Origin: Chiloscyllium plagiosum
Taxonomy: Eukaryota
DNA length: 64,000 bases
Reading direction: 5' to 3'
Assembly (NCBI RefSeq): GCF_004010195.1
Contig: NC_057756.1
Coordinates: 970,265 to 1,034,264 of the forward strand
Shown: positions 670 through 41,500 of the stretch, one piece after another
Numbering within the stretch: the stretch's first letter is position 1
How the letters are laid out: each line of letters begins with the position of its first letter
Position numbers and translations under genes: made by a program
The notes under the pieces: model-generated
Seen by the model: the letters and a program-made list of their open reading frames with translations, nothing else
What the model was told of the DNA's origin: nothing
The model's database searches: none

Positions 670-696
670 AAGAAAAGCTGATTAAAAATGACAAAG
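670..696 (+). CDS. 27-nt phase-1 microexon (EEKLIKNDK) of the B30.2 gene
   Basis: strong acceptor ttctttctttttatttcataacag, donor GTAAGC, open frame. Confidence 0.7.
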
Positions 697-2944: not shown

Positions 2945-5900
2945 AGAGCGGTCTGGAGGCTGGAGTAATGCGGGAAAGTTTGTTGGAGTCGGGCCTAGCG
3001 CCATGTGCTGAGCTGCTGCAGTTTGGAATTCTTTATGGACTGTAATGTAAATATTTTTTCGGAATGTTATAAGTACCTGATTTCTAACTCATTCTCAGAC
3101 ATTGTAAGCAATGCTACTGTTGTCCTTTTAATACTCTTTTGTATAACAACACCTTTTTTTTAACTCTGTAAGATTTGCACCCAAGTATGTTTACCTAAGA
3201 TGGCGCTTTTAAAAGTCAACCATTGCAAAACCTTTCCACCTCTATACTGGAGTACAAGTGACAATAAATTATATTAAATTCAATTCAATGTTCGATTCAA
3301 TTCAATTGATACTTTTGTCCAGAAATAAATATATCGATAAATACAATTCTACAAAATGATTTCAAACTACCTAAGGTCACAGGCTGTTCATTAAGTCAAT
3401 GGTTCGCAATAAAAAGAACACAATTCTGAGAAATTTTCAAGGCCCATATTTAAACAGATAAAGAGTCCAGGTATCGAAATTGATTGTGTCATCTTCTCAG
3501 AATAGCTTAATGCCCGTAAACAAATAATGCAGGTCGTTCCCAAAGAAAGAAACATGGGTTATGGTGGACTTAAAGTAACTGCAAAGGGCAGGAAAATGTC
3601 ATTTTGTTTTAGAGATTGTCAATGTGCAACAAGACCGAGCAACTAATGGAGATTGTGAAAGACGCATATACTGCGTAATTCATCTTGTTGGGGCTGTCAG
3701 CGCTGGAGTTACATGGGAATGTTTGCATTCAATGTCGGACCGCAGAATGAAAAAAGTGAAATGACTGAACGAGGCAGAAAAGGTATTTGAAGAACCAATA
3801 TTTACTGACGATACATTTGCCTGCAAAATTCTGATGGAAGTGAATATTATTATGAAAAATGAGAATCAACACCCTCCACAAAATTCTCCACCCCCAAACA
3901 TGTTGGTTACCATCAGCAAAATGCCTACAATTCATCCGAGGCCGTATAAATAGGTTTATGAACGCCATTGTGCTCTTAATGTCCTGAACGAGAAGACTGT
4001 ATTTTACAAGCGTGTGACCTATAAATGACAGATGATGAACAATAACTGTAATACCGTTGACAAGACTCGTTGACAGATTATTTTAATATATTTGAATACC
4101 TATTACAACATTTTATTTCCACCTAGATCTCATAAACAAGATAGTATCTTTTTAACAATATTCTGTGTTTCAATTCTGTGCATTTGCAGTTAATGTGTAA
4201 TGCAATCGAAATAAATCCCTTATTGACTCTAACGATAAATTGAAACAAGTTAAACTTGCTAGTGACATTCTTTAGCATATTGTAATTCACTCGGATTTTA
4301 TATGCACTAATGATGCAAGCTGCAACTTTTGTGTAATTTGAAACTTGCAATCTACTTTTAGAATTGAAAGACCTCAAAGCAAAGTGCAGTAAGTAATGAG
4401 TAGGATATTGTGAAAATTCATCATAGAATGGGAACAGAGAAACTGGTAGACGTACATGGGACGCAGCTGGAGCTGCTGTAAAATATTCTGAGCCCTTTGT
4501 TTTAGTATGGAAGAAGTAACCTTCTAGACAGCGCACTGCTTTATATCAGCGTGACAGTTGATTTCAGACAATCGAAGTACAGGCACGGATTAAACACACT
4601 GGCCTTACTTTCCATCAAAATTTACTAGGTGGTTTGAGTGATATTTTGAAACATATAAAGAACGTTTTACTCAGAGAGTAGTAAGGGCATGGTACGCCCA
4701 GCTTGCGACAATGGTCAGCTCACCAAACTTACGGGTACTTAAATGTTAATTACATAATGCAATGGTGTCTAAGACACTATGCTGCCATTCAACAAGTTAC
4801 TGAATGGTCTTATTGTGAGGTGAGATTTACCTATCATAAACAAACGGGCCGTTGTTGCATCAGATGTCTGTGCAGCTGATATTCAACATGATTAACTACA
4901 GCAATATGTGTACTTCAGATGTACTTCATGTGTTGTAGATTCTGGCAATTGCTGCAAAGGATTTGCTTTGAAGATGGCATTTGATTATTATCCTCTGTTA
5001 ATGCAGCCTCTATCATTCAGGATGGTAGATGTCAGACTTTTAGAAATTATCAAAAGAAAAAGAAATGGTTCTCTTTTTGCATAGTAGGCAAAAGGCATGA
5101 ATGTGGAAGCATGTGAATTTTTTTTGGAGGATAGCATACAAATTCAGCAGGCTGATAAGCTTTATAAAATTTGAAGCAAATAGCTTCGGAGTTGTTACTT
5201 ACTCTAATGCCAGCAAATGTTGGGATCCTGTCACTCTCCTGACTTTTGTACTGCGGAAATTCTGGAACATTGTCAGCTCGTTGCTGCAAAGAATTCATCT
5301 TCTTGTGTCTTCCATGCCTTATGGATGAGTCAAAATTCTAGAACAGTATTCCTTTCTGATCTGTCATAAAGCTATAATTAGGAGACGGTTCCCTCTAATC
5401 CTAGAATTCCCCATGAGGGAAATAATCCTCTTAGCATGTTTTCTGTCAGGGCTTTTTGGAATCTTATTTATTTCAATGCGATCATTTTCTTTCATTCTCA
5501 ACTTCACTGAGTAGAAACAAGACCTGTTGCCTTTGCTAATAAGACATTTACTAAATACCAAACATTATCCGACTGAAACCTCTTCTGAATTGTCTCCGAT
5601 AATATTATTTCTTCCATGACATCAGAGGGCCAGAACAACTTATATTACTCCAGAAGTGATCTCAGAAGCATCTTATGCATTTGCAGCAGGACTTCACGCC
5701 TCCTTTATAACAAATCTCTTGAAATAAGAGCCAACATTCCGTTAGCCTTCCTGATTAACTGGTGCACGTGTATGCTAACTTTCTGTATGTATGGCCAAAT
5801 ATTCATGAGCCTCTCTGTGTTGCAAATTCCTGCAGTCTTTTTTCTTCTTCTTCATTTAATTAATGCTGTATTCTTTTGTTCTACCTTCCAAAACGAACAG

Positions 5901-11854: not shown

Positions 11855-11878
11855 TTGAAGCCTGTGTCAAGGTTCGAG
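11855..11878 (+). CDS. 24-nt phase-1 microexon (IEACVKVR)
   Basis: tgttttgttttctgtcaacag|...|GTAGGA; open frame. Confidence 0.65.
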
Positions 11879-12130: not shown

Positions 12131-12166
12131 AATTGGAAAAAAAGCTTCAAGAGTCATGTGGGGAAG
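12131..12166 (+). CDS. 36-nt phase-1 microexon (ELEKKLQESCGE)
   Basis: ttgttactttcag|...|GTAAGA; coiled-coil-like peptide. Confidence 0.7.
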
Positions 12167-13310: not shown

Positions 13311-14190
13311 AGTTGCAGATACACCATGGGTGAAAAGATACAGGAAAATCAAAGAAAAGAAACACTTGCACTGCATCATCATATGCAGATGCTTGTACTC
13401 TGTTGCGTGCCAATTTCTGATAGTGATAGACATTTGAGTGACTGTACCTTTTCTATAGACAGCAAAACAAGTTAATAAAGGAATGGCAAATTCATCCTAA
13501 TACGGGGCGATAATCAGAGGGGATTAATCAATCTGTAGGTGGTAATTGTCCATCCTTTCTAAAGCAACAACTCAGGTTAATAGTGATACTAAAATGCGAG
13601 CAACAAACATTATGGACAAGATTAAAACAATGGTGAGGATGTAAAAGTTTTTTTTTGCAAGTATTTCAGGTTTTAAAACGACTGTTACGATGAGTTTGCA
13701 GAAAGGAAAAAAAAAAACACGTTGGAAATTGTCCTTGCTTGATCAAAGGGCACAGTGCCATTCGCGGTGATAACGAACAACCAAGAGGTTTCAAAGAGAG
13801 CAAAGAAATGAAACTTATTCTAATGGGAGGAGGTTCGATGCCTACGGGGCACACGTTGAAAGTGTAATGCAATAAACATCAGAGGCAAGACGGTGATGTT
13901 TTGTTTTCATATGTTCAACATGTATTCATGATTGTGTGCAACATGTTCAAAATGTTTACAAGCATGCATCGAATAAGAAGTCTCTTGGCTTATTTTCTTT
14001 TAGTGCCTTTTTTGGACCAGGCTAGAACCTCTGCAGAAATCTCTAACAGACTGAAAGTGACATTATTACACCAAGTATGTTCATAACAATCGAATTCAAT
14101 ACCTAGAAAAAACATACTCACACCTACCACTCATCACCTTTGAGTCCAACAATCTTAATCCCATACTGACTTTGCATCAGAGATCACTGA

Positions 14191-15990
14191 CGAGAGGGAC
14201 ATGATGAATGTTGAGATTAGAGATAGAAGCTTGTTTACTCTGGATCACATTGACAAAAAGAGCGAAGATGTGTTGGGTAGGCTAAAGGATATTAAGGTGG
14301 ACAAATGCCCAGTACCCGATTGGATCTATCGCAGGTTGCTGAGGGAGGCGAGAGATGAAATATCTAGGGCCCTGACAGATATCTTTGTAACATCCTTAAA
14401 CACAGGTGAAGTGCCAGAGGACTAGAGGGTAACTTATCTTGTCCCCCTGTGCAAGAAGGATAGTAGGGATATTCCAGGTAACTACAGACCAATGAGTCTG
14501 ACTTCAGTGGTGGGAAAGTTACTGGAGAAGGTACTGAGGGATAAAATCTATTTATATTTGGAAACAAATGGGCTTATCAATGGCAGGCAACATGATTTTG
14601 TGCGGGGGAAATCATGCCTTACCAAGTTAATAGAGTGCTTTGAGGAAATGACCAAGTTGATAGATGAAGGAAGGACTGTAGATGTCATATACACAGACTT
14701 TAGTAAGGCGTGTGATAAGGTTCCCCATGGTATAGTAATGGAGAAAGTGAAGTCACATGATGATCAGGGTGTTCTAGCTGGGAGGATAAAGAAATGGTTG
14801 AGCAACAGGAGATAGAGAGTAGTAGTTGAAGGGAGCTTCTGGAAATGGAGAAAGGTGCCCAGTGCTGTTCCACAGGAGTCAGTATTGGGGTCACTGTTGT
14901 TTGTGATATACATAAATGCTCTGGAAGAGGGCACTATTGGTCTGATCAGTAAGCTTGCAGATGGCACGAAAATTGATGGAGTAGCAGAAAGCATAGGGGA
15001 CCGCTGAAGAATACAGGAGAATATAGATAGACTGGAGAGTTGGGCAGAGAAATGGCAGATGGAGTTCAATCCAGGCAAATGTGAGGTGATACATTTTGGG
15101 AAGTCTAATTTTAGAGCGAAATATACTGTAAATGGAAGATGCTTGGGAAAAGTGGATGAGCAGAGAGATCTGGGAGTTCAGGTCTATTGTACCTTGAAGG
15201 TGAATGAAAGTGACATTATTACACCAAATGTGTTCATAACAATCGAATTCAATACCTTGAACAAAACATACTGACACCTACTACTCATCACCTTTGAGTC
15301 CAATAACCTTAATCCCATACTGACTTTGCATCAGAGTTCACTGAGGAGAGGAGTGGTCAAGAAGGCATATGGTATGCTTGCCTTCATCAGACGGGGTATT
15401 GAGTATAAGAGCTGGCAGGTCATGTTAAAATTTACAAGACGTTTGTGCGGTTGCATGTAGAATACTGTATACAGTTCTGGTTGCCACATTACCAAAATGA
15501 TGTGGATGCTTTCGAGAGGATGCAGAGAGGGTTTATGAGGGTGTTGCCTGGTATGGAAGGTGCTAGCTATGAAGCGAAGTTGAGTAGATTAGGATTGTCT
15601 TCATTAGGAAAAAAAAAGAGATTGAGGGGAACCTGATTCAGGTCCACAAAATCATGAATTGTATAGACAGGGTGGATAGAGATAAGATTTTTCCCAGGGT
15701 GAGGGATTCAATAACGAGAGGTCACAGGTTCAAGGTGAGAGGTGAACCGTTTAAGGGGGATACACGTGAAAAGTACTTTACACAGAGGGTGGCAGGTGAC
15801 TGGAATGCGTTGCCAGCACAGGTAGTAGAAGCAGGCACGGTAGATTCATTTAAGGTGCATCTGGACAGATGCATGAGGAGGTGGGTGACAGAGTGTTACA
15901 GATGCTTAGGAATTGGGCATGTATTTGGATTGGCTTAGGCTTGGAGCGCCGAAGTGTCTGTTCCTGGGCTGTAAATTTTCTTAGTTCTTT
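14191..15990 (+). mobile_element. 5'-truncated CR1 LINE with an internal templated insertion
   Basis: SLTSVVGKLLE, KSCLT, DVIYTDFSKA, MEFNPGKCEV; stops and frameshifts. Confidence 0.9.
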
Positions 15991-16569: not shown

Positions 16570-19505
16570 TTGGTTAGGATGTTCTTTGGAAATGAGAGAG
16601 ACTCGCGGTTGGTGTGTTGCTTTCCAGGTTCCAGGGTTCATGATATCTCTGATCGTGTTTTCGGGATCCTTGAGGGGGAGGGGGGCAGCCCCCAGTCGTG
16701 GTCCACATAGGCAACAATGACATAGGTAGGAAGAGAGATGGTGATTTAAGGTATAAATTCAGGGAGCTAGGGTGAAAGCTTAGAGCGAGAACAAACGGCG
16801 TTGTTATCTCTGGTTCATTGCCCGTGCCATGTGCTAGCAAGGCGAGGAAAAGGGAGAGAAAGAGTTGATTACGTGGTTACAGGCGTGGTGCAGGAGCGAG
16901 GGCTTTGGATTCCTGGATAATTGGGCTCTTGCTGCGATCGAAAAGGTAGGGAAGACGTTTAAAAAAAGGATGGTCTTCACCTGAACCAGAAGGTACCAAT
17001 ATCAGTATCCTGTGGAGGAAGGTGGGGAGGGGGGATGTTTGCTACTGCTATTCAGGAAGGTTTAAGGTAGTTCAACAAGGAGATGAGAAATTAAACTGTA
17101 ATTCCAGTGTACAGGAGGTTGAGAGATCAGAAATAAGGTTTAAAGTTTGCAAGACACACCTGCAAGCAAGAGGTTGGTTTGAAGTGTATCTATTTCAACG
17201 CCAGGATAATCAGAATAAGGTGGGTGAACTTGCAGCATGGGTTGGTACCTGGGATTTCGATGCTGTAGCCATTTTGGAGACGTGGAGCAGGGACAGTAAC
17301 GGTTGTTGCAGGTTCAGGGGTTTGATATTTCATTAAGATCAGGGAAGGTGGTAAAAGAAGGGGAGGTGTGGCATTGTTAGTTAACGGCAGTATTGCAGTG
17401 GCAGAAAGGACGGTTGAGGACTCATCTACTGATGTAGTATGGGCTGACAATTGAACGGGAAAGGAGAGGTCACCCTACTGGGAGTTTTCTATAGACCTCC
17501 AAATAGTTCCAGAAATGTAGAGGAAATGAAAGCAAAGATGATTCTCATTAGGAGCGAGAGTGACAGGGTAGTTATTATGGGGGACTACAATTTCTCAAAT
17601 ATTGACTGGGAATATTATAGTTCAAGGACTTTAGATGGGTCAGTTTTTGTCCAATGTGGCAAGAGGGTTTCCTGAAACAGTATGTAGACAGGCCGACAAG
17701 GGGCGAGGCCACATTGCATTTAGCAGTGGGTAATAAACCTGGCCAGGTGTTCAATTTGGAATTAGGTGTGCACTTTGTTGACAGTGACCGCAATTTGGTT
17801 ATCTTTATTTTAGCCATGGAAAGGGATAGATATATAAAGCAGAGCAAGAGTTACAGCTGAGGGAAAGGTAATTATGATGTGATTAGGCAAGATTTAGAAT
17901 GTATAGGATGGGGAAAGAAAGTGCACAAGATGGGCATTATTGAAATGTGTAACTTATTAAAGGAGCAGCTACTGGGGATCCTTGATAAGGATGTACATGC
18001 TAGATAAGGATGAAATAGTCGAACGTGGGAACAGTGGTTGAATTTCATATCAAGAGGAAGAATTCTTATGTTAGGATGAGACGTGAATGCTCAGTTAGTG
18101 AGTTTGAGAGTTAAAAGTTCGCCAGGAAATACTGAAAGAGAGAGCGAAGAAGAGCCAAGGTAGGACATGAGAAGCCGTTGGCAGATGGGATCAAGGGAAA
18201 CCCTAAGGCTTTCTATATGTATATCAGGAATAAAAGAATGGTTAGAGTAAGATTGGGACCAACCAAGGATAGTAGTGTGAAGTTGTGCATAGAGTCATAG
18301 GAGATATGGGAAGCATGGAATGAATATGTATCGTTAGCATTCACACTGGATACAGACAATGTTTTCGTGGAGAATACTGACGACTACAATGGGTGGGATT
18401 GAGGTTCACAAGGAGGAGGTGTAAGTCCTTGGGCCAGATGGTATCTATCCCAGAACTCTCTGGGAAGCCAGGGAGGGGATGGTGGAGCCTTTTGCTTTGA
18501 TATTTATATTGGCATTGTTTACATGAATAGTGCTGGAACACTGAAAGACAGTCAATGTTGTTCCCTTGTTCGAGAGGGGGAGTAAAGACAACCCTCTTAA
18601 TTATAGACCAGTGAGACTTACTTCAGCTGTGGCCAAAGTGTTGGAAAAGGTTACAAGAGATGGATTTATAATCATCTAGAAAGAAATAAGTTGATGAGCG
18701 ACAGTCAATACTGTTTTGTGAAGGGTATGTCGGCCCTCACAAACCTTACTAAGTTCTTGAGAAGGTAACCAAACAGATGGATGAGACTAACGTGGTCGAT
18801 ATTGTGTATATGGATTTCAGTTATGCTTTGATAAGATTCCCATAGTAGGCTATTGCACAACATACAGATGCATGGGATTGTGGGTGAATTAGCAGTTTGG
18901 ATCAGAAATTGACTAGCTGAAGGAAGACAGAGGGTGGTGGTTGATAGGAAATGTCCATCCTGGAGTTCAGTTACTACTGGTGTACGGCGAGGATATGTTT
19001 TGGGGTCACTACTGTTTGTCATTTTTATAAAAGACTTGAGTGAGAGCGTAGAAGAATATGTTAGGAAATTTGCGGATGACACTTTGGTAGAGTTGTGGAT
19101 AGTGCCGGAGGACTTTTTACGTTACAGACGTACAGAAATAAGCTGCAGAGCTTTGCTGTGAGGTGACAAATGGAGTTTAATGTGGAAAGGTGTGAGGTGA
19201 TTCACTTTGGAAGGAGTAACAGGAATGCAGAGGATTGTGCTAGTAGTAAGATTCTTGGTAGTGCAGATACAGAACGATCTTGGTGTCCATGTATATAGAT
19301 CCCTGAAAGTTGCCACTCAAGTTGATAGGGTTGTGAAGAAGGCATATGGTGTGTTTAGTATCTATTTGTAAAGTGATTGCGTTTAATTGCGATGAGGTCA
19401 TACTGCAGCTGTACAAAACTCTGGTGCGGTCGCACTTGGGATATTGCATACAGTTCTGGTCATGTATTATAGGACGCATTTGGAAGCTTTGGAAAGGGTT
19501 CAGAA
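16570..19505 (+). mobile_element. Decayed CR1 LINE (ORF1 esterase end, endonuclease, RT)
   Basis: VVISG, DAVAILETW, GVFYRPPNS, MGDYNF, KFADDT; many stops. Confidence 0.9.
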
Positions 19506-19555
19506 GATGACAAGCGTACATCCATGAATAAATCTCTTGGTTTGTTTTCTTTTAG

Positions 19556-19576
19556 ACTCGAAGGAAAAAGAATCAG
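19556..19576 (+). CDS. 21-nt phase-1 microexon (DSKEKES)
   Basis: tttgttttcttttag|actcgaaggaaaaagaatcag|GTCAGT. Confidence 0.65.
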
Positions 19577-20554
19577 GTCAGTCCCCTGTTGAATTAATGG
19601 AGAGGGAAGATGGGACAAGGGGGGATTGCATATAATTAATCTATCTCAGTGAAGTATGTTAATTGGAACTGTCTGATATAACAGTGAAATATAGCTTCAA
19701 ATTCATCTCTGGAAGGGGTACATCCACCACTGCAGTGTTTCATGGAACAGTGAAAGTAGTTTGAATGTTATTCTATCCCAGGGCTGCATTTGTTCTGAGA
19801 GTTTAATATTCATGGATCAATGTGCTATATCTCCTCCTGCAGTTTATGATAAGGGATGGGATATCATTTTGATGTTCGTCTTTGTGAATGTCAACCTTGG
19901 TGTATTTGGTAAGGAAGTGCTTGCAATTGGAGATACTTCCCTCTCGGTGTCTTGTCACCGCTTTCGACTTTGTGAGCATCTGACTGTATGAAATGTCAAA
20001 TATAGGTTTAAAAGGGAAGTTTTGGCACTGTGCTGAACTAAGGCCTTCAGAGAAGGAAAGTGATGTTTCGTTTGAATGAAGCTTCTACAAAGGCAGTATG
20101 TCCGTCGTATTGACCACAGATTTCTCTACTCGGATACAAAAGTTCAGCTCTTGCTTGAACACATAATGAGTCAGACCAAATGGTGAGAGATCACAACCGT
20201 CCAAGTATAAAGCCGCACTTCCCTAACAGTTCCGTGTTCGCTTCTACTCAACTTGCGCTCTGCCTATACACAAGAGGTATCGCTCCTCACACTGCAACTG
20301 CCGTTGAGGAAATGGAGAACACTGATCTCCCGAGGTAAGTTTTTAAACTGAACTCCTACCTTCCCTCGACCCTCTGGTGCTCGCTGTCGCTCCTCCCACT
20401 GCAACTGCTGCAGATAAAATGCGTTCCTTCTGTGTGACTTTCTTGTCATACTGCGTTTTGTTTTCACACGTGCCCATGTAGCGACGAACGCGCTACGGGC
20501 TGAAGATGACAAGCGTGCATCCACGAATAAATCTCTTGGTTTGTTTTCTTTTAG

Positions 20555-20575
20555 AGTCGCAGGAGAAAGAATCAG
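20555..20575 (+). CDS. 21-nt phase-1 microexon (ESQEKES)
   Basis: tttgttttcttttag|agtcgcaggagaaagaatcag|GTGAGT. Confidence 0.75.
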
Positions 20576-21719
20576 GTGAGTCCTCTATTGAATAATTGGA
20601 GAGGGAAGGTGGGACATGGAGGGTTGGGGATGAGGGGAGTGGGGGAGCATGTTTAAAATTAGTCTTTCCCAGCGTCGTATGTTCCTTGGATGTGCCTGAT
20701 ATAACCGTAAATAGTTTCAAATTTATCTCTCGAAGGACCACATCCGTTATTGCAATGTTTGATGGAACAGTGGATGTAGATTGAATGTTATTCAATCCTG
20801 GGACTGCATTTCTTCTGAGAGTTTAATATTCAACGATCACAGTGCTATATCTGCGCCTGCAGTTCCTGATACGTGGTAGGCTATTATTTTGATATTCGTC
20901 TTTTTGAATATCAACCTTGGTGTGTTTGGTAAGAAAACACTTGCAGTTGGAGAAACTTCCCTCTCGATGTCTCGTCTGTGTTTTGTCACCGCTGTAAGTG
21001 TTCGACTTTGAGCATCTGACTGTATGAAATGTCAAATGTATATTAAGAGGGAAGTTTTGGCACTGTGCTGAGCTAAGGCCTTCAGAGAAGGAAAATAATT
21101 TTCTTTTGAATGGATATTCTATTAAGGCAGTGTGTCCGTCGTAAAGACCCACAGAAATCTCTACTCGGATACGGAGGTTCAGCTCTTAGAGTCATAGGTC
21201 CTAGAGATGTACAGCATGGAAACAGACCCTTCGGTCCAACCTGTCCGTGCCGACCAGATATCCCAACCCAATCTAGTCCCACCTGCCAGCACCCGGCCCA
21301 TATCCCTCCAAACCCTTCCTATTCATATACCTTGCTTGGGCACAAAATGATTCAGACCGAATGGTGAGAGATCACAACCGCCCAAATATAAAGCCTCACT
21401 TACCCGTGTACGCTCCTGCTCAGCGTGCTCTAGCCTTCCCGAGGTACCGCTCCTCCCACTGCAGCTGCTGCTGAGAAAATGAAGAACGCTAACCTCCCGA
21501 GGTAGGTTGTTAAACTCTTGTAATACCTTCCCGTCAGACCTCTGGTCATCGCTGTCTCTCCTCCCACTGCAACTGCCGCCGAGAAAATCTGTTCCTTCTC
21601 TGCGATTTTCCCGCCACATTGCATTTTTTCACACGTGTACACGTAATGACGAACCTGCCACGGGCTGAAGATGACAAGCGAGCATCCATGAATAAGTCTC
21701 TTGGTTTGTTTTCTTTTAG

Positions 21720-21740
21720 ACTCGAAGGAGAAAGTTTCAG
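21720..21740 (+). CDS. 21-nt phase-1 microexon (DSKEKVS)
   Basis: tttgttttcttttag|actcgaaggagaaagtttcag|GTGAGC. Confidence 0.7.
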
Positions 21741-22699
21741 GTGAGCTAATGAAGAGGGAGGTGGGACACGGGCGCCATGTTTAAAATTAGTCTATCCAAG
21801 GGTCGTATGTTCCTTGGAACTGTTTGATATAACAGTGAAATATAGCTTCAAATTTATCTCTGAAAGGGCTACATCCACCATTGCAGTGTTTAATGAATGA
21901 GTGGAAGTAGTTTGAATGTTATTCTATCCCAGGGCTGCATGTGTTCTGAGGGTTTAATATTCATGGATCACAGTGCTATATCTGCCCCTGCAGTTTCTGA
22001 TAAGGGATGGGATATCATTTTGATGTTCGTCTTTGTGAATGTCAACCTTGGTGTATTTGGTAAGGAAGTGCTTGCAATTGGAGATACTTCCCTCTCGGTG
22101 TCTCGTCTGTGTTTTGTCTTCGCTATGAGTGTTCGACTTTGTGAGCATCTGACTGTATGAAATGTCAAATGTATATTTAAGAGCGAAGTTTTGGCACTGT
22201 GCTGAACTAAGTCCTTCAGAGAAAAAAAAAATGACGTGTTTGAATGAATCTTCTAAAAACAGTGTGTCCGACGTATTGACCCACAGAATTCTCTACTCAG
22301 ATACGAAAGTTCAGGTCTTGTTTGAACACATAATGATTCAGGTCGAATGGTGAGGCATCACAACCGCCCAAATATAACGCCTCACTTCCCCAGCAGTCCC
22401 GTGTTCGCTCCTGCTCAGGTTGCACTCTGCCTATACACGAGGTATCCCTCCTCCTAGTGGAACTGCCGTCGAGAAAATGAAAAATGCTGATCTCCCGGGG
22501 TAAATTTTTAAACTGTACTCCTACCTTCCCTCGATCCACTGGTGCTCGCTGTCGCTACTCCCATTCCAACTACTGCCGAGAAAATGCGTCCCTTCTCTGT
22601 GATTTTCCTGCCACACTGTGTTTTAATTTTCACACGTGCACATATAGTGACGTACCTGCCATGGACTGAAGATGACAAGCGTGGTTTATTTTCACTTAG

Positions 22700-22720
22700 A
22701 CTCGAAGGAGAAAGAATCAG
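22700..22720 (+). pseudogene. Inactivated 21-nt exon copy (donor GT>CT)
   Basis: ttcacttag|actcgaaggagaaagaatcag|CTGAGT, plus a deletion upstream of the acceptor. Confidence 0.7.
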
Positions 22721-23445
22721 CTGAGTCCCCTGTTGAATGAATGAAAAGGGAAAATGGGACATGGGAGTTGGGGGACATGTTTAAAATTAATCTGCCCCAG
22801 CGTCGTCTGTTGCTTGGATGTGTCTGATATAACAGTGAAATATAGCTTCAAATTTATCTTTGGAAATCCGCCATTGCAGTGTTTAATGGAACAACTTTGG
22901 TTGACTGAATGTTATTCTATCCCGGAACTGCATTTGTTCTGAGAGTTTAATATTCATGGATCTCAGCGCGAAATCTGCCCCTGCAGTTTCTGATAAGGGA
23001 TAGGATATCATTTTGACGTTCGTCTTCGTCAACGTTAACCTTGGTATACTGGTAAGAATATGTTTGGAATTTGAGAAGCGTTCCTCGCTATCTAGTCTGT
23101 TTTTTGTCACCTCTATGAGTGTTCGGCTTTGTGAGCATTTGAATGTATGAAATGTCAAATGTATATGAAGAGGGAAGTTTTGGCACTGCGCTGAACTAAG
23201 TCCTTCAGAGAAGGAAAATGACTTTTCATCTGTATGAATCTTCCGATAAGGCAGTGTGTCCGTCCTATTTCCTCACAGAATTCTCTACTCAGCTCAGCTC
23301 TCGCTTGAACACATCATGATTCAGATAAAATGAAACCACAGTGCTCAACAGGAGCAATTACTACAACTGAACTCTGATGGTCAATATTAAGCCGTACATT
23401 TATGCTTCACATCTGTTCTCTCTGCTTTCAAACAAGGCCATTCAG

Positions 23446-23472
23446 ATTGGAGGGACGTGAAGAGAAATAAAG
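23446..23472 (+). CDS. 27-nt pre-B30.2 exon (DWRDVKRNK); alternative in-frame acceptor at 23437 gives 36 nt
   Basis: ...aacaag|gccattcag|attggagg...aaag|GTGAGA; a short W-containing exon typically precedes B30.2 exons. Confidence 0.75.
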
Positions 23473-24254
23473 GTGAGAAATAAGATATTTGCCTGTCCCA
23501 CAGTTTGAATGTATTGTTAACATCTCAGAGTAATATAACATACCAGTACTCATAAGTTAAAACAACACAATGTAAAGTAGATAACTGCTAATCAATTGAA
23601 CGACCTGTTTTACAGAGGGAACTGGGTGACTCTGGAGCTGTTGATCATTTAAGAACATATTTCGTAGGGACAGGATTATGCCATTAAGCTGTTTGGATCT
23701 GCTGTGCCACTTAATGATTTTATGTTATATGTTTGACCTTGGGATCATTATTATGTAATGTCAACATCTTTCTTAAGATTTTTTTTAATTTTATACTGAG
23801 AAATATATTAGTCACTGAAGCATGCTAAATGATTGGCCCTTCTGGGATAGAGAATACCAACATTCGTCATCCTCTGAATGAAAAACTTCATCTCATTTCG
23901 TTCTTTTATGATCTGGTTCGTTATCAGAATCTGCATTCTTCTTCTCAATGCAACAGGCAGGGGTAGAGCTCTGTAAGAATTGCACATGTTTTAGTTACTT
24001 CAACTCATATTCTTCTAAGTTCCAATGAGGTTTTGAAGAGAAAGCTGAAAATTCTCAAGACGGTTAAATCAATAGAGTGGAAAGAGTTTTACCGCTTGCA
24101 GTGGGAAATGAAAATATTCGTCTACCACATACTTAGTGTTGCATTTAAATGAGTTGACCTTTTACGTGTGCTATACATTATTTCGTAAGTCTGTACACCT
24201 CCATGAACCTCATTGCGGATATATTTCAGAATTGTGTTTCTTTTTGTTTTGCAG

Positions 24255-24775
24255 TGTCAGTTTTTCTCGATGGGGAAACATCGGATCCACGATTCACTCT
24301 ATCTGAAGATCGGACCAGCCGCACGTGGGATGCAAACGCCCAACTTACACCAGAACAGAAGCAGCATAAATTAGACAGTTGGGCCATATGGGCGCGAGAT
24401 GGACTCGAGTCAGGAAAACATTACTGGGAGGTATCAGCTGGCCCAGAGACGGCGTGGACTGTGGGAGTCTCTCAGCACACAATACCCATATCCAGATTTC
24501 ACAGACCCTCGGTCAAGGTGGGGTTTTGGGTAATGATGTTGTGGAACATCAAGGGCACCCGTGTGCAAGTAAGGAAATTGGGCACAACCATGCTGTTGGC
24601 CCCATTGAACAAACTAGGAGTTTATGTGGACTTTATCGAAGGTCGAATCTCTTTCTACAACCCAGATGGTGGGGCTCATCTGCATACTTTCAACGCCGAG
24701 TTCACTGGTAAAGTTTACCCCGTCTTTCAGCTCTGGGCAAGCACCCGTCCTGATGGGACCATCTCTATTGTTTAG
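24255..24775 (+). CDS. Terminal exon encoding a B30.2 (PRY-SPRY) domain; butyrophilin/TRIM-like gene
   Basis: acceptor tttttgttttgcag; VFLDGETSDPRFTLSED, SGKHYWEV, WTVGV, GFW, KLGVYVDFIEGRISFYN, HLHTF, KVYPVF; TAG stop. Confidence 0.93.
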
Positions 24776-26399
24776 TTGGGAGACATGGAACCCAATGAAT
24801 TTGGAAGACCTCATTAAACTCAAACTGTTCTAGTTGGTGTGAAAGCCATGTTCCTCCCTACACCTAATCACACCCGCCATTTTGACGTCCTACTCTTTGT
24901 CCTTTATCTCTGTCATGTCAAATTCCCTGCTGTAATGCTTCAATAACATTTGTCTCATGCACTCTCTGAACCAGAGAGATTTTTATGTTCCACGAACCTT
25001 ACGGATGAAGAAGCATCTCCGCTTTTTCATACTGTACATCATCCTCTGTTACGTTACAAGAATTGATTCTCACTATAGTCTTCTCAACACGTTGAGCGGG
25101 CTTCTTTTCATGGGGAATGGTAGAGCAGTAATGTAGGCCACACCATGAGATGGCTGCTGCTGCCCTCAATAATTCTTGCATAAAAGTCTAGGTATTATCA
25201 ATTTTATTCCTCCCACCCCACACACAGACCACTCCCCCACCCCTCACTACCGTCCCTGTGGAAACCGTTTTTCTCATACTTCTTGCATTTATCTTTCTTT
25301 CTTGTTTGCAAATCTATATTCGTTCATCACCAAATAGACAATTTAGTTTATTAAAATAACTTACGCTAATGAAACCACCCAATTTATATCATAGCTGTTG
25401 TATCTCTCCTCACGCATCACTTGGATTCTTGGAAAGGAATTAAATAAAGAACTGATCTCTCAAATGGCCTTGAGTTCATACATAGAAAAGAAGTGACAAT
25501 TATATTAGACAGAAGAGACATGAATGTTAAAGATTGGTTCGAGATTAAAACAAAAACAAGCCAAAGCTAAAGGCCGATTGCACTAGAGATTATTAGAGAA
25601 AATAAATTCTTCATTCCAGCTTATTTTAGTTAATGAATAGATTGCAGAAAGCATCTGGTCAACATCACATTGAAAACTTTGAAGAAAAATTACAACAGTC
25701 ATGCTCATGTTGGCCCTAAACATGAGCTATTCTGTTAACCATTTCCAACTAAGCCCTTACATGTTAATGTTCAACTACTGTGCTAATGGGCAGTATTTAT
25801 TTTCCAAAAAATATGCTTTCTTGACAGAACTTGTTAGAATACATTGTGATATGTGTCAACTCTCAAATTACAGAAGATGCAATAAAATTCAACTTATCTC
25901 AATTTGGCAGTTTCTATTCAATGATATTGCCACAGATCTATGATATATTACAGAAAACCAATACAATAAAATATTTGTGTTTACAGAGATATTAAACGGT
26001 TCTTCCATTTGCAGGTGTCAGGTCAAAATAAGAGATTGGATTCAGTGTTGACTAATTATAATTGCACGATTAGTTTGGATAATTTAGGATTGCTCTCGTT
26101 AGAGGAATGAAGAATGAGATGCAGTTTGACGGAAATGTAATACATCATTTTAGGTTCAGATAAGTTATACAAAGAAAATGAGTCCAGATTGGCAAAAAGA
26201 CCAAGAGGCACAGTTTGAAAATCTTCATAATATAATACAGGAGTTACGTGTTTTTGCATTCATAATTACAGACATAATTCTAGTTTGCAATCTTGAATCC
26301 TCTTTAATTCCACACTACAATAGAGACAATGCACATCACACTCCACTCTGTCCAACGAAACTTTCAAGGCTGTGGTGATATGGAAGGTAAATGAGGTTA

Positions 26400-26613
26400 G
26401 CGAGTTTTGAGAAGATTTGTAGCTCAGGTTGAGGTTCTGGATGTAGGTTGGTTCGCTGAGCTGAAGGGTTCATTTTCAGACGTTTCATCACCATACTAGG
26501 TAATATCTTCAGTGACTGACCGGATGAAGCTTGGTCCGGCGGCTCACTGAAGATGTTACCTAGCATGGTGCCTGAAAATGAACCTTCCAACTCAGTGAGC
26601 AAATCTACATTCA
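26400..26613. mobile_element. Palindromic Penelope-derived insertion with 13-bp TSD
   Basis: GTAAATGAGGTTA at 26387-26399 and 26614-26626; inverted arms ~26437-26515 / 26544-26613; related to the 16290-16390 terminal repeat. Confidence 0.8.
26476..26515 (-). ncRNA. Minimal type I hammerhead ribozyme motif
   Basis: minus strand TCA-CTGAAGA-T-ATTACC-tagtat-GGTGAT-GAAACGTC-TGA: core boxes, 6-bp stem II, palindromic ACGT, GUC site. Confidence 0.65.
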
Positions 26614-29600
26614 GTAAATGAGGTTAAATGAATTGCTCTAGCCAGAAATAAGGTATGCTGAAGTGGCACAATGTGTTCTTTCTGTGCCTCATTGTCTCCA
26701 GAACTCAGCAACTGTCAGGTTCAAATGAAATTATCGAAATAATGTCAACATACAGGTTTTATTGTTAAATTCGAATTTACAACCTTAAATAAGCTTTAAT
26801 GATACATTTCAATTTATAAATCTGTGGTTGGATGTGAATGGTTTGACAGAACGAGTTACACAGTTGAATGAAGAAAACACGAGTTGACAAATTCATTTTT
26901 TAAAACATTGACATGGATGATGATTACACTGGCAGATAAGCTGAGGGAGAGAGAACAGAAAGAACATTCAAAGGGTAAGAGAGATAATGAAATGCACAAT
27001 GAGAAATAGAAATGGAGGAAAACGGGGGAATGGGTGGTGTGAAAGGAGCAGAGCATAAAGGGAGACAGACAGGGCAAGAGAAGGAAATATAAATAAAGAG
27101 CGTAACTCTTGCAGAAAACAGCAATGATGGATGAAGAAAGAGAAAAGAACCCACTACTGAAATAATAGGGAAGATTAGCTTCTCAAAGCTGTTTCATTGT
27201 CATGATAAAAATGAGACTCTTGGCTGAATAAGCGAGGCATATTGATCAAGGATTCAATGTGAGGTTGCAGCTCACAGTATGGATCAAAACACAAAAAAGC
27301 AGCATGACGACAACCAAAAATTCAAAGTGCTGAATTGTATTTGATAGAACTCTGAGCGAGACCAGTAAAGATTTTAATGAGTGTCCAAGCTCTTTGCATG
27401 AAACACGTTGAAAACGTGCAAAAACACGTAACTAAATAACACGCAATATTTAGACATAAGAAAGTTCTGAGCAATGGTAAATGCTGTTGAAAATATGTTT
27501 TCAAAGGTTGACGGTGCATAAAAAGCCTTGCTCCTACAATAATGATGATGTCGCTTTTATTTTAAAGATTGGTAACTAAGAAGATCAATCACGGCTACTT
27601 TTTTTTCAACAATCCCACTTCAACAACTTATTGACGACACAACATCGACGGCCGAAGAGCCTGTAGTGTGCTGTACTGTTCTACATTCTATGCTATATGC
27701 TGGTTAAGATTAATATAATATGCAACCACACAAACAGTAATACTTACACACATACATACACACGGCTGAAGAAATTTGGTTCTCTGTTTTTATCGTATAA
27801 ATGCCACTGCTACGAAAACAAGGGATTATGTTACAAGACTAATATGAATAATGTTTAAAATTTCTGAAAATTTTAATAGCACTCAATTATACAAAGATGT
27901 TACAACAACTACAGGAGCAATAGAGTAGTTGTCCAATGCCCTGAAGGAAACAAAAAAGCCTGTTACTGCTTGCAGTTGCTGTAAGCATATCTGTTGTCAT
28001 GACAGGCTGCACTCGTCTGAATTAGAATGATAGCCATACAAAACGTTTCTTTCACAGAAAGCGGGGACCAATTCATGCATTGAATTGTTAAATAAATAAT
28101 GGATCACCTGGCCTAATCCCAACCTATAAGATTTGGTCCATATTACAGCAAGTTATATAAATTGAGTTGCGTATCCACACAGTTTCAATAAATGCATCAT
28201 TTGCATTTCTAATGTATTTTCAAGCAGTGAAGTCTAGATCCATTCACCGAGGGAAAATATATTTCCTCATCTGCACAATAAACTGCTCAGCAACTATTCT
28301 GTGCTGCGTAGTCGCTGTTCTCTGCTCAATTATGTGGGACGTACAGAATTTGCATACTGTATGCAGGCTCCTCACATTGTCGGCAGCACAATCAAATCCG
28401 CTCTCCGCCTTTTCTTTGGTCAGGAGAGAAATGTTCTTGTCTTTGAAATATTTAATCACAACTGCAGTTTGGCAGATAGTTCACATCCTTGAATTCTACG
28501 TGAAGTTCGGCACAAAGAGTGCATTACTGCTGCTATAATCCTGCAATCTTTCGCAGAAGGAGGAAAGGATAGCAAGGTGGATGCTGGGTCAACAAATTCA
28601 GTTATGTAACTAAACTCCTGTTGGATCAATTTAACATGAGGGTTCGTCTAGTTTTGCTGCAATCTTGCTTTTCAGTGCGCTCAGATACGTTCGAGCAACT
28701 TTAAGTGCAAGGTGGGGATATTGAACAAAACGTGTCTTACTTCTGAAACATCCAGGCATTTTAGCTCAAATGTTCATATTTCCCTTTTAAATAGAAAGCG
28801 TAATGATTCGTGGTATAGGTGAGTTTGTCAGGCGCAATTGATTCAATTGTTGAAAGGGCTTGGCATATTTCAGAGCTCAGGATCCTCGAAAAATCATGAA
28901 CACCAAATTAGCATTCTGAACTCTCTTCCCTGGGAAGGGATGGCACTAGATTCAGCAAACATTTATAGTACACACGTTTGGCAGCATAGCCACAAATCCC
29001 AATGGGTGCATATCTGCATTAATAAGAGACAGTTATTGATGTATAGCTTCAGAAACAACTTTATCATGGTGTGTCGTGACGAGTCACCAACCTGTTAAGC
29101 TACATCAACTGCATTGGGATTAAACCTGTTTTTGGTTATATTGCGTGGCAAATTCCAAAATCTCGCCAACAAAACTAACTATAAGAACGAGGCAATTCTA
29201 TTCTTCCGTGCAGAAACATGAAACTGATGACCAATTCCATTCACGAATGATCTTTATGCATGGAAGGCCAGACGTGAGTGTTTTACTGGTTGATACCTGG
29301 TACTACACAGTGTGGCCATTTGTTGCTTCACCATTCTTATAATATTTAACAAATTAAATAAGGGTGCGCAGAGGAGGAGAATGGTAACACAGCAAACATC
29401 TAGGACACTTTCTGAGACAACAAGGTGAGGGTGTACCAATCTATGAAGCAGATTTGCCAACAGGCACATGACAAACTTGAGACTTGGTTGCACCAAAAAG
29501 GAATAGAGCACAGAAATGGTAATGAGAAGCATGTGATGCAAATGAAGATGGGGAAAGCAGACATTTGAAGATTCTTCAACTTTGCTAGAAAGGGGAAGGA

Positions 29601-32086: not shown

Positions 32087-34095
32087 CATCCCCTTTCAGA
32101 AAAAAAATGAACCATCATAATTAAAAAGATGGCTTCAGTTTTTGTTCTTTTCTTCTATTTTTAAATACATTACCCTAACACACAGATAAATTTAAATTTA
32201 TATATACATTAAATAAATACATATCTCATCTAAACTCCATCAGTTAAATCCACAATAATGTATCAGTGATTACATTCTTATGACCCGCAACATGTATGAT
32301 TTTTAAATTAAAAGCCTGTAACATAAGACTCCAACAAAACAGTCTCATATTCTTGTCTTTAAAGCGTTCTAAAAATGTAAGCAGATTGTAATCCATGTAC
32401 ACAACCGTCTCCAACACGTTGTTTGTGACATACACATTAAAATGTTGTGAGTTTCCTTTTGAATGTGGAGTATTTCCTCTGGTAGATGTTGATCTTCTTT
32501 GAAAAGTAATCAACTGGCAGTTCAATCCCACCCTCACCTTTTTGGAGGAATACAGCTCCAACTTCAAAGTCAGTGGCATCAATGGCAACTTTAAAAGGTA
32601 TTGAAACGTTTGGTATAACTAAATCTGGTTTGGTGGTTAATATTGATTTTCAATGATCGAATGCATCCTGGCATTGTTACATCCACCAAAACGTTGTGAT
32701 CTTCTTCAGCAAATCGGTTAATGGTGCCACTATGCTGCTGAAGTTTGGAACAAACTTCCAATAGAATGCACTGAGTCCTAAGAACCAAAGTGCCTCTTTC
32801 TTTGAGGTTGGCCATGGAATTTACTCAATGGCCTTTGCCTTTGCGTTCAATGGGGTCAACCTTCCATGACCAATGTTTTGTCGCAAGAACATCATCTCTG
32901 TTTTTGCAAATTCCGTTTTGTTTATCACCAGTTTTGCTTCTCGTAGTCATTCAAAGAGCTCTGCCAACTGTATCATGTGATCTTTCCAGGACTTACTAAA
33001 GATCATTACATCATCCAAATAGATTTCACAGTTTGTTAACCTAGCCGCAACTCTGTTCATGAGACTTTGGAATGTGGCAAGTTCATTCCAAAAGGTATCA
33101 ATTTAAACTGATATAGCACAATTGGGATTACAAAAGCAGAAATGTTTTGGCCATTTCTGATAAAGGTACCTGTCAGTAACCATGCATTAAGTCCAACCAG
33201 GTGATAACTGGCTTGTTTGACTTTCTTGATATAGTCCTCCAATCTAGGAATTAGATATGAGTCCAATTTTGTAACAGCATTGACCTTTTGATTGTCCATA
33301 AAGAATTGTTGTGTCCTGTCCAGTTTGGTAATGAGGATGATCAGCAAACTCCACTTGCTCTGGCTTGGTTCGATGATGTCCTCGTCGAGCATGGCCTCCA
33401 CCTCCATCTGGACCTGTCTGACTTTGAAAGGATTAAGTCGATAAGGGTACTGTTTTATTGGAACAGTATTCCCTACGTCTACTTCATGCACAATAGCATT
33501 AGTCCTCTCCATCTGATCTTTACATATGTCCTTATACTGCAGTAACAAATCTTTCAACTGCATTCTATGCTCCTGAGACAGATACCTTACAAACTTATCC
33601 CATTCCTCAAGGATTTCTTCATTTTTAAAATCTATTTTGAGGCACATCAAAATTCATATCATCTGGATTTGATTCCTTACTCTGTGGAGCAGTAACCTGT
33701 TTCTCCTGTTCTTTCTCTCTGGTATAATACGGTTTCAATATGTTCACATGACATACTTAATACCTTTCTTTTCTATCTCACATCTTTGTTAGATAGTTCA
33801 CCTGACTCAACTTTTTCTCAATTTGATAGCGAGCACTAAACCTGGCTTTGAAGGGATCTCCTATCACTGTTAACAGTACTAATACATCGTCCATTAGGGA
33901 AAACATCTGATTCTCAGAGCTTTTATCTGCCACCTGTTTCATTCTACACTGGGCCCTCTTTTAGGTGCTATTTAGCAAACTCACCTACACTATTTAATCT
34001 CTCCTCAACTCTGATTTAAAATCTAAGTGTGAGATCTCTGACGTTAGTCTTACAAATTTTCTTTAAGTAATTTCAAAGGGTCTCTCACTTCATGG
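32087..34095 (-). mobile_element. Gmr1-like Gypsy internal region: integrase C-terminus, RT, RNase H (disrupted)
   Basis: DPFKARFSARYQIEKKLSQVNY..VCHVNILKPYY upstream of PIKQYPYRL..IIEPSQSKW..YLIPRLED, then RNase H end WSLMLQAFNLKIIHVAGHKNVITD. Confidence 0.85.
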
Positions 34096-40469: not shown

Positions 40470-40900
40470 GGCCTGATGTCTGATTGGATCGTCACTCCTG
40501 TCGGCCCCGCATGCATTTTCCAGCTTTCGCTTCTGATTGGTCAGTGGCCCCATGGAGCACTTTTGACGGACGTTTCATGTCGAAATACGATTGGACCGGG
40601 TTTCAAAAGGGGCTGAGGGACCGCTTTTCGTATTGATCTGACGGAGACCCACGTGGTCCATTGACAGACGGCCTGTTTGCCAATTCGATTAGTTTGCAGT
40701 TTGACAGACGGGCCATCTTTGGATTCTATTGGTCAAGATCTCACGTGAGCCGCTTGAGGGACAGTCCGTTTCACACTGGGCAGTTTGACGGACGTGTTTA
40801 TCCGACTGGTAATTGGTCAGTGTCCCACGTGGTTGAGGGGTTGGACATTTGGTGGTGCTGTCTCGGGGTCCGGTGGCTGGAACTGGGTAGAGTGGCCACG
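40470..40900 (+). promoter_or_regulatory. CpG-rich promoter/5' region of the Myb/SANT gene with CCAAT boxes, E-boxes and TTGAC(A/G)GACG repeats
   Basis: ATTGG at 40483, 40536, 40590, 40728, 40812; CACGTG at 40650, 40742, 40826; TTGACRGACG at 40563, 40661, 40701, 40785. Confidence 0.75.
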
Positions 40901-41131
40901 ATGAGGGAAGGCCGGACCCCCCGTTTCAGTGACGGCGCCGTGGAGGTACTGCTGGAGCGGGTGAGGGCCCACAGGGAGATCCTGTTTCCCTGGGAGGGCA
41001 GGAGTGTGCCCCGGGAGTTGGTGCACCAGGCCTGGATGGACGTCGCTGTGTGTGTGAACGCCAGGAGCGAGGTGCCCAAGACCTGGCTGCAGTGCAGGAA
41101 GAAGTTCAACGGCCTGACCTGGACGGCCAAG
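40901..41131 (+). CDS. Exon 1 of a Harbinger-type Myb/SANT-like DNA-binding protein
   Basis: gccacgATG; RTPRFSDGAVEVLLERV..AWMDVA..VNA..KTWLQCRKKFNGL (Myb_DNA-bind_5-like); donor AAG|GTAAAC, phase 0. Confidence 0.88.
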
Positions 41132-41189
41132 GTAAACAGAAACCCCCGGGTTCTCCTACATGCCGGTGTTATCAAGTATCTCTGTGATT

Positions 41190-41500
41190 CCGGACAGTGC
41201 CAGTTTCCTCTGTGGTACCAAACTACTCTGATTCCCGGTTGTGACGCCTTGTTGTAGGTGTTCCCTGTGGTGTCCCGCTGTGCCAGCTCCTTCTGCACTA
41301 CCAGTCTCCTGTACTGAACCAATATTCTCTCTGGTACCAGTCCTGTCTTGTGCCTTTTTCCTCTGCAGTACCAGTTCCCTGTGCTATATCCCTACTGTAC
41401 CAGTTCCCTCTGTGGTACCAGTCCTGTGTGGTGCCACTCACCTGTGCATTGTGCCAGACCTCAGTGGTGCCCTGCTGTGCCAGTCCCTTTCCCGATGTAT
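41190..41500 (+). repeat. Degenerate minisatellite (gt[a/g]ccagt[t]ccctgt)
   Basis: recurrent accagt/gccagt..cct..g motif at the start of intron 1. Confidence 0.6.

Follow-up and report, generated by a model that had tools for sequence, protein, structure and literature searches.

The window analyzed here is a stretch of 64,000 nucleotides (nt) from the bamboo shark Chiloscyllium plagiosum (contig NC_057756.1, positions 970,265 to 1,034,264 of the forward strand; positions below are counted from its first letter). On its plus strand lies the tail of a predicted gene, in which short coiled-coil exons lead to a terminal exon for a divergent B30.2 (SPRY) domain, and between these two parts stand four tandem units of about 1 kb. 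The initial annotation had given the units periods of 999, 1165, and 1001 bp and had recognized in each an acceptor and a 21-nt exon, with GT donors in units 1 to 3 and with a CTGAGT donor and a deletion 5′ of the acceptor in unit 4; this description was confirmed. Unit 1 (19503..20501) carries exon copy 1 (19556..19576, DSKEKES, donor GTCAGT), unit 2 (20502..21666) carries copy 2 (20555..20575, ESQEKES, donor GTGAGT), and unit 3 (21667..22667) carries copy 3 (21720..21740, DSKEKVS, donor GTGAGC). Unit 4 starts at 22668, is partial, ending at about 23332, and holds copy 4 (22700..22720, DSKEKES), from which read-through reaches an in-frame stop after 13 codons; the deletion upstream of its acceptor is 21 nt long. 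All four exons are of phase 1, and the distances from exon to exon are 999, 1165, and 980 nt.

Self-BLAST aligned the units with each other at 76 to 81% identity over up to 1692 columns (E ~0), and the gap-free identity in a four-way alignment was 82 to 87%. Tandem Repeats Finder is blind to periods above 500. A "tail" sequence precedes the acceptor in units 2 to 4 and is absent from unit 1; the duplicated block is really made up of tail, acceptor, exon, and downstream intron. The extra length of unit 2 comes mainly from a 146-column insertion (~21184-21331), which is the end of a very high-copy repeat. On its 5′ side, unit 1 is joined to a fragment resembling a long interspersed nuclear element (LINE), and when three further LINE-like copies from the window are compared with it, the junction falls at a short shared motif, where a deletion would have occurred.

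The array is embedded in a chain of predicted micro-exons. Splice sites were scored with home-made matrices built from approximate frequencies, and the candidates were compared with the catshark protein P0048 and the skate protein P0188. The chain begins with a 27-nt phase-1 exon of the coiled-coil part (670..696; splice scan), and the gene continues upstream of the window. It proceeds through a second 27-nt coiled-coil exon (4362..4388), whose peptide ranks fourth among 96 candidates against P0188 (ungapped score, 30), a 33-nt exon colinear with P0048 (10200..10232), a 27-nt exon with a weak donor and seven of eight residues identical to P0048 (10901..10927), a 24-nt exon predicted from the splice scan and the P0048 comparison (11855..11878), and a 36-nt exon, placed by the same comparison, that would be the last coiled-coil exon before the linker (12131..12166). 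Behind the array follow a predicted penultimate exon of 36 nt (23437..23472; ungapped score of 35 against P0188 just before its B30.2 domain), which an alternative acceptor at 23446 would shorten to 27 nt, and the terminal coding exon, which encodes the B30.2 domain up to the stop (24255..24775; Pfam SPRY, E = 1.7e-16).

With units 1 to 3 included, the predicted chain is open over 11 exons, all of phase 1, and reads 263 codons to the B30.2 stop, in agreement with the earlier proposal that the 21-nt exons stand before B30.2. When the four exons between 10200 and 12166 were aligned with P0048 without gaps, 16 of 39 residues were identical, and the score of 84 was reached by none of 2000 shuffles. 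In the best of seven registers, seven of the eight a/d positions in the upstream coiled-coil exons are hydrophobic. The B30.2 exon shares 98% identity with Chiloscyllium punctatum chiPu_0007878, whose model covers just the B30.2 part, and the frame of the exon is open; the three variants listed in the contigs of runs X1 and X4 are two silent changes and one Thr>Ala. Taken as a whole, the tail of the gene is a row of phase-1 micro-exons (27, 27, 33, 27, 24, 36, three times 21, and 36 nt) spread over 24 kb. The micro-exons at 4362, 10901, and 12131 start with nearly identical bases, a trace of older exon duplications, and two tandem 151-bp copies, 98% identical, lie within an intron of the gene (2638-2944).

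The splice sites of units 1 to 3 stand out from the rest of the window. Their donors rank in the top 1% of its 3540 GT sites, among which the copy-2 donor scores highest, and their acceptors rank in the top 2% of its 4015 AG sites. When the plus strand of the whole window was scanned for in-frame exons of at most 60 nt with strong sites, three of the five predicted exons were the 21-nt exons of these units, and none lay beyond 26000. In unit 4 the acceptor is weakened rather than destroyed (score of 1.7 versus 4.8); it retains the AG and a run of pyrimidines, with a branch-like ATGAC at −25. No cryptic donor scoring above 0 was found within 200 nt of the unit-4 exon. A contig of run X4 covering 22148-22850 matches the window except at 22464 and 22222, and since it shows unit 4 in the same state, the changes in this unit are unlikely to be assembly errors. 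In the contigs of run X1, units 2 and 3 have intact exons and donors, copy 3 being identical in contig 21559-22171; no listed piece covers the unit-1 exon.

The 21 residues encoded by copies 1 to 3 comprise 13 charged residues, 6 Ser, and a single hydrophobic one, as expected from the description of the peptide as charged, Ser-rich, and unlike a heptad. The further suggestion of a phosphorylatable spacer gained no support from the CK2 consensus: the consensus is S/T-x-x-D/E, and no match to it lies inside the units. The peptide is likely a charged linker between rod and head.

To what kind of protein this linker belongs was addressed through its relatives. A search of 1.84 billion representatives returned, as the closest single-domain relatives, proteins of skate (Leucoraja, XP_055510696), catshark (Scyliorhinus, XP_038668997), chimaera (Callorhinchus, XP_042191566-8 and XP_042192744), electric ray (Narcine, XP_069775384-90), and basking shark (Cetorhinus, XP_078422387), all of them annotated and unstudied. 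The window B30.2 domain, which is 33 to 50% identical to theirs, falls into this cartilaginous-fish clade with support of 100/100 in two trees. The clade is separate and long-branched from Ig (immunoglobulin)-bearing butyrophilin-like and from TRIM sequences; under a midpoint root it has no resolved sister group. In each of the 10 clade sequences scanned with Pfam, SPRY alone exceeds its curated cutoff; Ig, RING, and B-box domains are missing from all of them, the 1697-residue chimaera protein P0089 included. On these sequence grounds the host gene is probably neither a BG or butyrophilin gene nor a TRIM gene, and the names that the relatives bear in the databases (TRIM39-like, TRIM69-like, A33-like, nuclear-pore anchor-like) were assigned automatically. 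With a profile built from the clade alignment, only two proteins were retrieved, both already known, and the ESM Atlas yielded generic SPRY clusters only; among solved structures, the clade profile matches BTN3A1 best (E = 8e-38). In the open-access literature we found no paper on a shark family of coiled-coil and B30.2 proteins. The family is apparently undescribed and is mostly missed by annotation.

The relatives resemble the window gene in having colinear segments of micro-exon size upstream of a B30.2 domain of the same clade, in annotated isoforms that differ by 6-, 7-, and 9-residue segments, and, in one chimaera model, in a 7-residue segment at the same place; unlike the window gene, none of them has the linker segment in three or four copies. 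Tandem repeats are seen in the family again: P0089 contains 12 matches to an 8-residue charged repeat in the middle of its rod together with three copies of a longer repeat. P0089 and the Leucoraja protein P0188 also begin with a hydrophobic stretch (KD19, 1.59 and 1.48), perhaps a signal or an anchor; no such stretch was seen in the catshark, Narcine, and short chimaera models (KD19, ≤0.51).

These comparisons bear on the ancestral state of the linker. Of two chimaera models, one has exactly one 7-residue segment more than the other, DKAEEES, directly after the last coiled-coil stretch. The segment is identical to copies 1 and 4 at four of seven positions, and its score of 20 was reached by 2 of the 560 7-mers in the N-terminal parts of the clade, one of which is DKAEEES itself. 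From the last EL-x motif to B30.2, the window gene would have 45 residues with three copies and, by subtraction, 31 with one; the corresponding spacers are 32 residues in catshark, 26 in skate, 39 in Narcine, and 35 in chimaera. The single chimaera segment and these spacer lengths point to one ancestral linker exon that gained its further copies in the lineage of the bamboo shark, where it was probably quadrupled, from one to two to four.

The order of events can still be read from the units. Pairwise differences amount to 13.3 to 18.3% (Jukes-Cantor distance, 0.15 to 0.21), and the informative sites support the grouping of units 1 and 3 against 2 and 4 at 10 positions, of 1 and 4 against 2 and 3 at 4, and of 1 and 2 against 3 and 4 at 3. 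Therefore, a single duplication followed by duplication of the pair is indicated. Units 1 and 3 share 106 identical bases in a row, a length reached in none of 2000 permutations and not approached by the other pairs (at most 35), and this tract is best read as a patch of gene conversion. Against the window, the longest contig of X1 has 8 differing letters in 1479, and that of X4 has 12 in 1443. At the mutation rate from an epaulette shark pedigree, 7e-10 per generation with an upper limit of 14.1e-10 (PMC10587355; this and the other papers cited below are represented by excerpts), the unit divergence corresponds to 5e7 to 1.5e8 generations, a rough figure, since rates measured in pedigrees do not equal those over long times; but the array predates standing variation by far.

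Whether the splice sites are better kept than the surrounding unit sequence was assessed by counting variable columns among units 1 to 3 (one-sided Fisher test, six regions tested), and the answer was divided. The region −53 to −1 has 4 of 53 variable columns versus 209 of 879 elsewhere (P = 0.003), and none of 695 sliding windows varies as little; over −40 to −1 the conservation is weaker (P = 0.027). Thus, the acceptor regions are more conserved than the unit around them, and the exon and its peptide are not. Four of the five exon changes in units 1 to 3 alter a residue, and the donor, with two of six columns variable, is not conserved beyond the intron.

Several features in and around the array were noted besides. 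An older, degenerate look-alike of the acceptor region of the units lies at 13958..14003 (plus strand; 80 to 83% identity over 46 nt, E = 2e-7 to 8e-6), but a corresponding 21-nt exon does not follow it; next comes a LINE-like insertion, on either side of which stands a 150-bp direct repeat (14049-14197 and 15202-15351). In the unit tails (20280-20421 and 22445-22586, with a similar part in unit 2), a 35-nt sequence is repeated directly, 107 nt apart, and a strong orphan donor stands at 20335. This donor and its weaker equivalents were considered as a sign of a second exon in the unit tail, which was rejected: in unit 1 no acceptor within 250 nt scores above 1.5, and the unit-2 candidates do not keep the frame. 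Because contig depth in the unit tails is about 5 to 10 times that of single-copy sequence, similar sequence must occur elsewhere in the genome. The joints found in these tails (e.g., from 21565 back to 20371 with 19 other letters between) would accordingly be look-alikes from elsewhere, and they and the raised depth were rejected as copy-number junctions. A small nucleolar RNA-like nature of the units was likewise rejected, as Rfam gave no match over 19400-23500 with E up to 1.

Taken together, we favor, with somewhat better than even confidence, the interpretation that the array consists of four old, diverged copies of one linker exon, three of which lengthen the linker by 14 residues while the fourth is skipped. 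The ancestor would have had a single 7-codon linker exon. One unit would have become two, the pair of units 1 and 2 would then have been duplicated to give units 3 and 4, and patchy gene conversion between units 1 and 3 would have followed. Because the exon is symmetric and encodes a linker rather than the coiled-coil core, extra copies keep the frame and would be tolerated. Weak selection would hold the acceptor regions and not the peptide; copies 1 to 3, putatively spliced in, would lengthen the charged linker, and unit 4 would be skipped. By analogy, the B30.2 domain would sit at the tip of a dimeric rod and bind a ligand there, and the linker would determine how far it reaches. The earlier proposal of exon birth by duplication of exon plus intron, and of exon death by loss of the donor in one copy, is supported by the units and by the CTGAGT of unit 4.

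A number of observations weigh against this interpretation. The only close database match spans the B30.2 exon alone, and no annotated full-length protein containing these exons was found in the protein databases searched. Alignment scores against P0048 (481 to 494, with the 36-nt penultimate exon) do not separate zero, one, two, or three copies, and the catshark 7-mer matches only after a shift of one residue. The two chimaera models come from different annotation releases, and the relatives, compared without a view of their exon borders, may be paralogues. The 21-nt exon is no more conserved than the intron (5 of 21 variable columns versus 209 of 879; P = 0.62), the splice unit as a whole, −40 to +6, is not significantly conserved (11 of 67; P = 0.11), and 15 of 16 AG/GT positions survive, which by our own arithmetic is about what divergence alone predicts. 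The conservation of the acceptor regions could also stem from gene conversion. Finally, two single-cell RNA runs of one sample, X5 and X6, were consulted. The part of X5 that was read (~2%) gave 557 reads on 19480-25600, essentially all on the high-copy repeat; no listed X5 read falls on the exons, B30.2, or the 3′ untranslated region, and X6 gave none; neither run amounts to a test of expression.

An alternative that we consider unlikely holds that the copies are cassettes, skipped singly or mutually exclusive, so that about one enters each transcript, the ancestral linker length is kept, and the variation is made by splicing. It agrees with the spacer of 31 residues for one copy, near the 32 of catshark, and with the segments of 6, 7, and 9 residues by which annotated isoforms of the relatives differ. 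Precedents are at hand in the link between tandem exon duplications and mutually exclusive choice (PMC9013439) and in macaque BTN3A transcripts lacking a heptad exon (PMC6790196). However, every combination of copies keeps the frame, and candidate docker and selector sequences amount to short imperfect inverted repeats only (at most 28 nt, 71 to 100%; no null was computed). Furthermore, the introns between the copies, at about 1 kb (978 and 1144 nt), exceed the lengths at which steric exclusion operates.

A bolder version, to which we give slightly less credence still, is that splicing tunes the hinge in zero to three 7-residue steps and that read-through at unit 4 switches the product to a headless rod. 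If true, the gene would have a BG-like modular tail on an Ig-less scaffold, in a shark-specific family of very long coiled-coil B30.2 proteins, and the array would give a direct view of how the micro-exon arrays of that family grow.

It is quite improbable that the extra copies are pseudo-exons undergoing neutral decay within an intron, or that the gene is barely expressed, unit 4 having simply decayed first. This would account for an exon divergence equal to that of the intron, for the mostly nonsynonymous exon changes, and for the absence of these exons from the annotated proteins found. It is at odds with the conservation of the acceptor regions beyond the intron (P = 0.003), with the rank of the three donors and acceptors in the top 1% and 2% of their kinds, and with the open B30.2 frame, in which the variants of X1 and X4 are two silent changes and one Thr>Ala.

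Very improbable is an ongoing unequal crossover that, under selection, changes the number of copies by 7 residues at a time, as happens in the tails of chicken BG1, and the accordion-like length control put forward in the initial annotation was not borne out. Units so diverged (13 to 18%, with a longest identical tract of 106 nt) are poor substrates for unequal crossover, and for this reason a live accordion is unlikely; other haplotypes differ from the window by less than 1%, and the age of the array, 5e7 to 1.5e8 generations, lies far beyond standing variation. Pieces unique to each of units 1 to 4 occur in both X1 and X4, in short-read contigs of which none spans the array. As a weaker point, there is no clean unit-length skip among 15 joints listed of at least 51.

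Least credible is the idea that unit 4 is a terminal or poison exon, its acceptor being used with read-through to the stop to give a B30.2-less form or a target of nonsense-mediated decay: the AG, pyrimidine run, and branch-like motif remain, the stop comes after 13 codons, and the exon equals the four-unit consensus, but the acceptor score is down from 4.8 to 1.7, no cryptic donor above 0 lies within 200 nt, and a micro-exon that lacks a donor is unlikely to be recognized by exon definition. Truncation of BG tails by intron read-through (PMC5938342) is a precedent on its side.

Comparison with known systems places the array as we interpret it, old and diverged, among familiar processes. The excerpts on chicken BG genes describe tails of 27 to 37 exons, mostly of 21 nt with hydrophobic fourth and last codons, a four-exon insertion in one line, and intron read-through (PMC5938342). 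The BG genes, especially BG1, resemble the shark gene in building a tail from strings of split-codon 21-nt exons whose number changes by duplication, and they show exon skipping and intron read-through (PMC5043582, PMC5938342, PMC4046983). They differ in that BG, according to these excerpts, combines an Ig-V domain with a transmembrane region and lacks B30.2, whereas the shark chain ends in a SPRY exon. Where BG exons mostly have hydrophobic residues at the fourth and last codons, the shark exons have Glu and Ser, and with one hydrophobic residue in 21 they do not follow the BG heptad rule (PMC5938342). BG1 copy number also varies between alleles, in contrast to shark units that are 13 to 18% diverged. 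The likeness to BG tails drawn in the initial annotation therefore stands for the mechanism and not for membership in BG, as a B30.2 domain is present and the relatives scanned have no Ig.

Butyrophilins have several very short heptad exons before B30.2, one of which is reported to be skipped (PMC6790196, PMC7348870, PMC8813856, PMC12841164), and the number of heptads varies between species (PMC6790196, PMC8813856, PMC12841164). The shark gene shares with them very short exons between an upstream part and a terminal B30.2 exon, here predicted and of phase 1. It departs from them in that its relatives scanned lack IgV and IgC, its duplicated exon is not a hydrophobic heptad, and its B30.2 domain does not group with those of Ig-bearing butyrophilins but falls into the separate clade (100/100). 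As regards TRIM proteins of the RBCC-B30.2 type, RING and B-box are absent from the relatives scanned, the 5′ end of the window gene itself lying upstream of the window. The excerpt of a report on fish TRIMs that lost domains (PMC3137616) does not show the shark clade. Tandem exon duplication is common (PMC9013439), and the array resembles it in that an exon was copied with flanking intron and the copies may be kept, alternated, or lost; what sets it apart is that a micro-exon of 21 nt was copied and that homology between the introns can still be read across the entire unit.

The remainder of the window holds a few other features. An open stretch of 206 codons at 40637-41254 (plus strand) encodes a Myb/SANT-like domain (PF13873, E = 1.4e-10), of a kind found in Harbinger-type transposons. 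Two open stretches on the minus strand (33060-33653 and 32247-32618) look by eye like a decayed pol of a long-terminal-repeat retrotransposon, and the former has no Pfam match. At 26437-26614 lies an imperfect palindrome of about 180 bp with 73% self-match, possibly a small inverted-repeat element.

The mechanism seen here, in which a symmetric 21-nt exon is duplicated with its intron and a copy is then lost, is already known from chicken BG and will not surprise a specialist, and the surrounding gene family is more interesting than the quadrupling itself. In the bamboo shark the duplication steps are still readable, from one to two to four units, with a conversion tract and a dead donor. The array shows how the micro-exon arrays of the coiled-coil and B30.2 family can grow.

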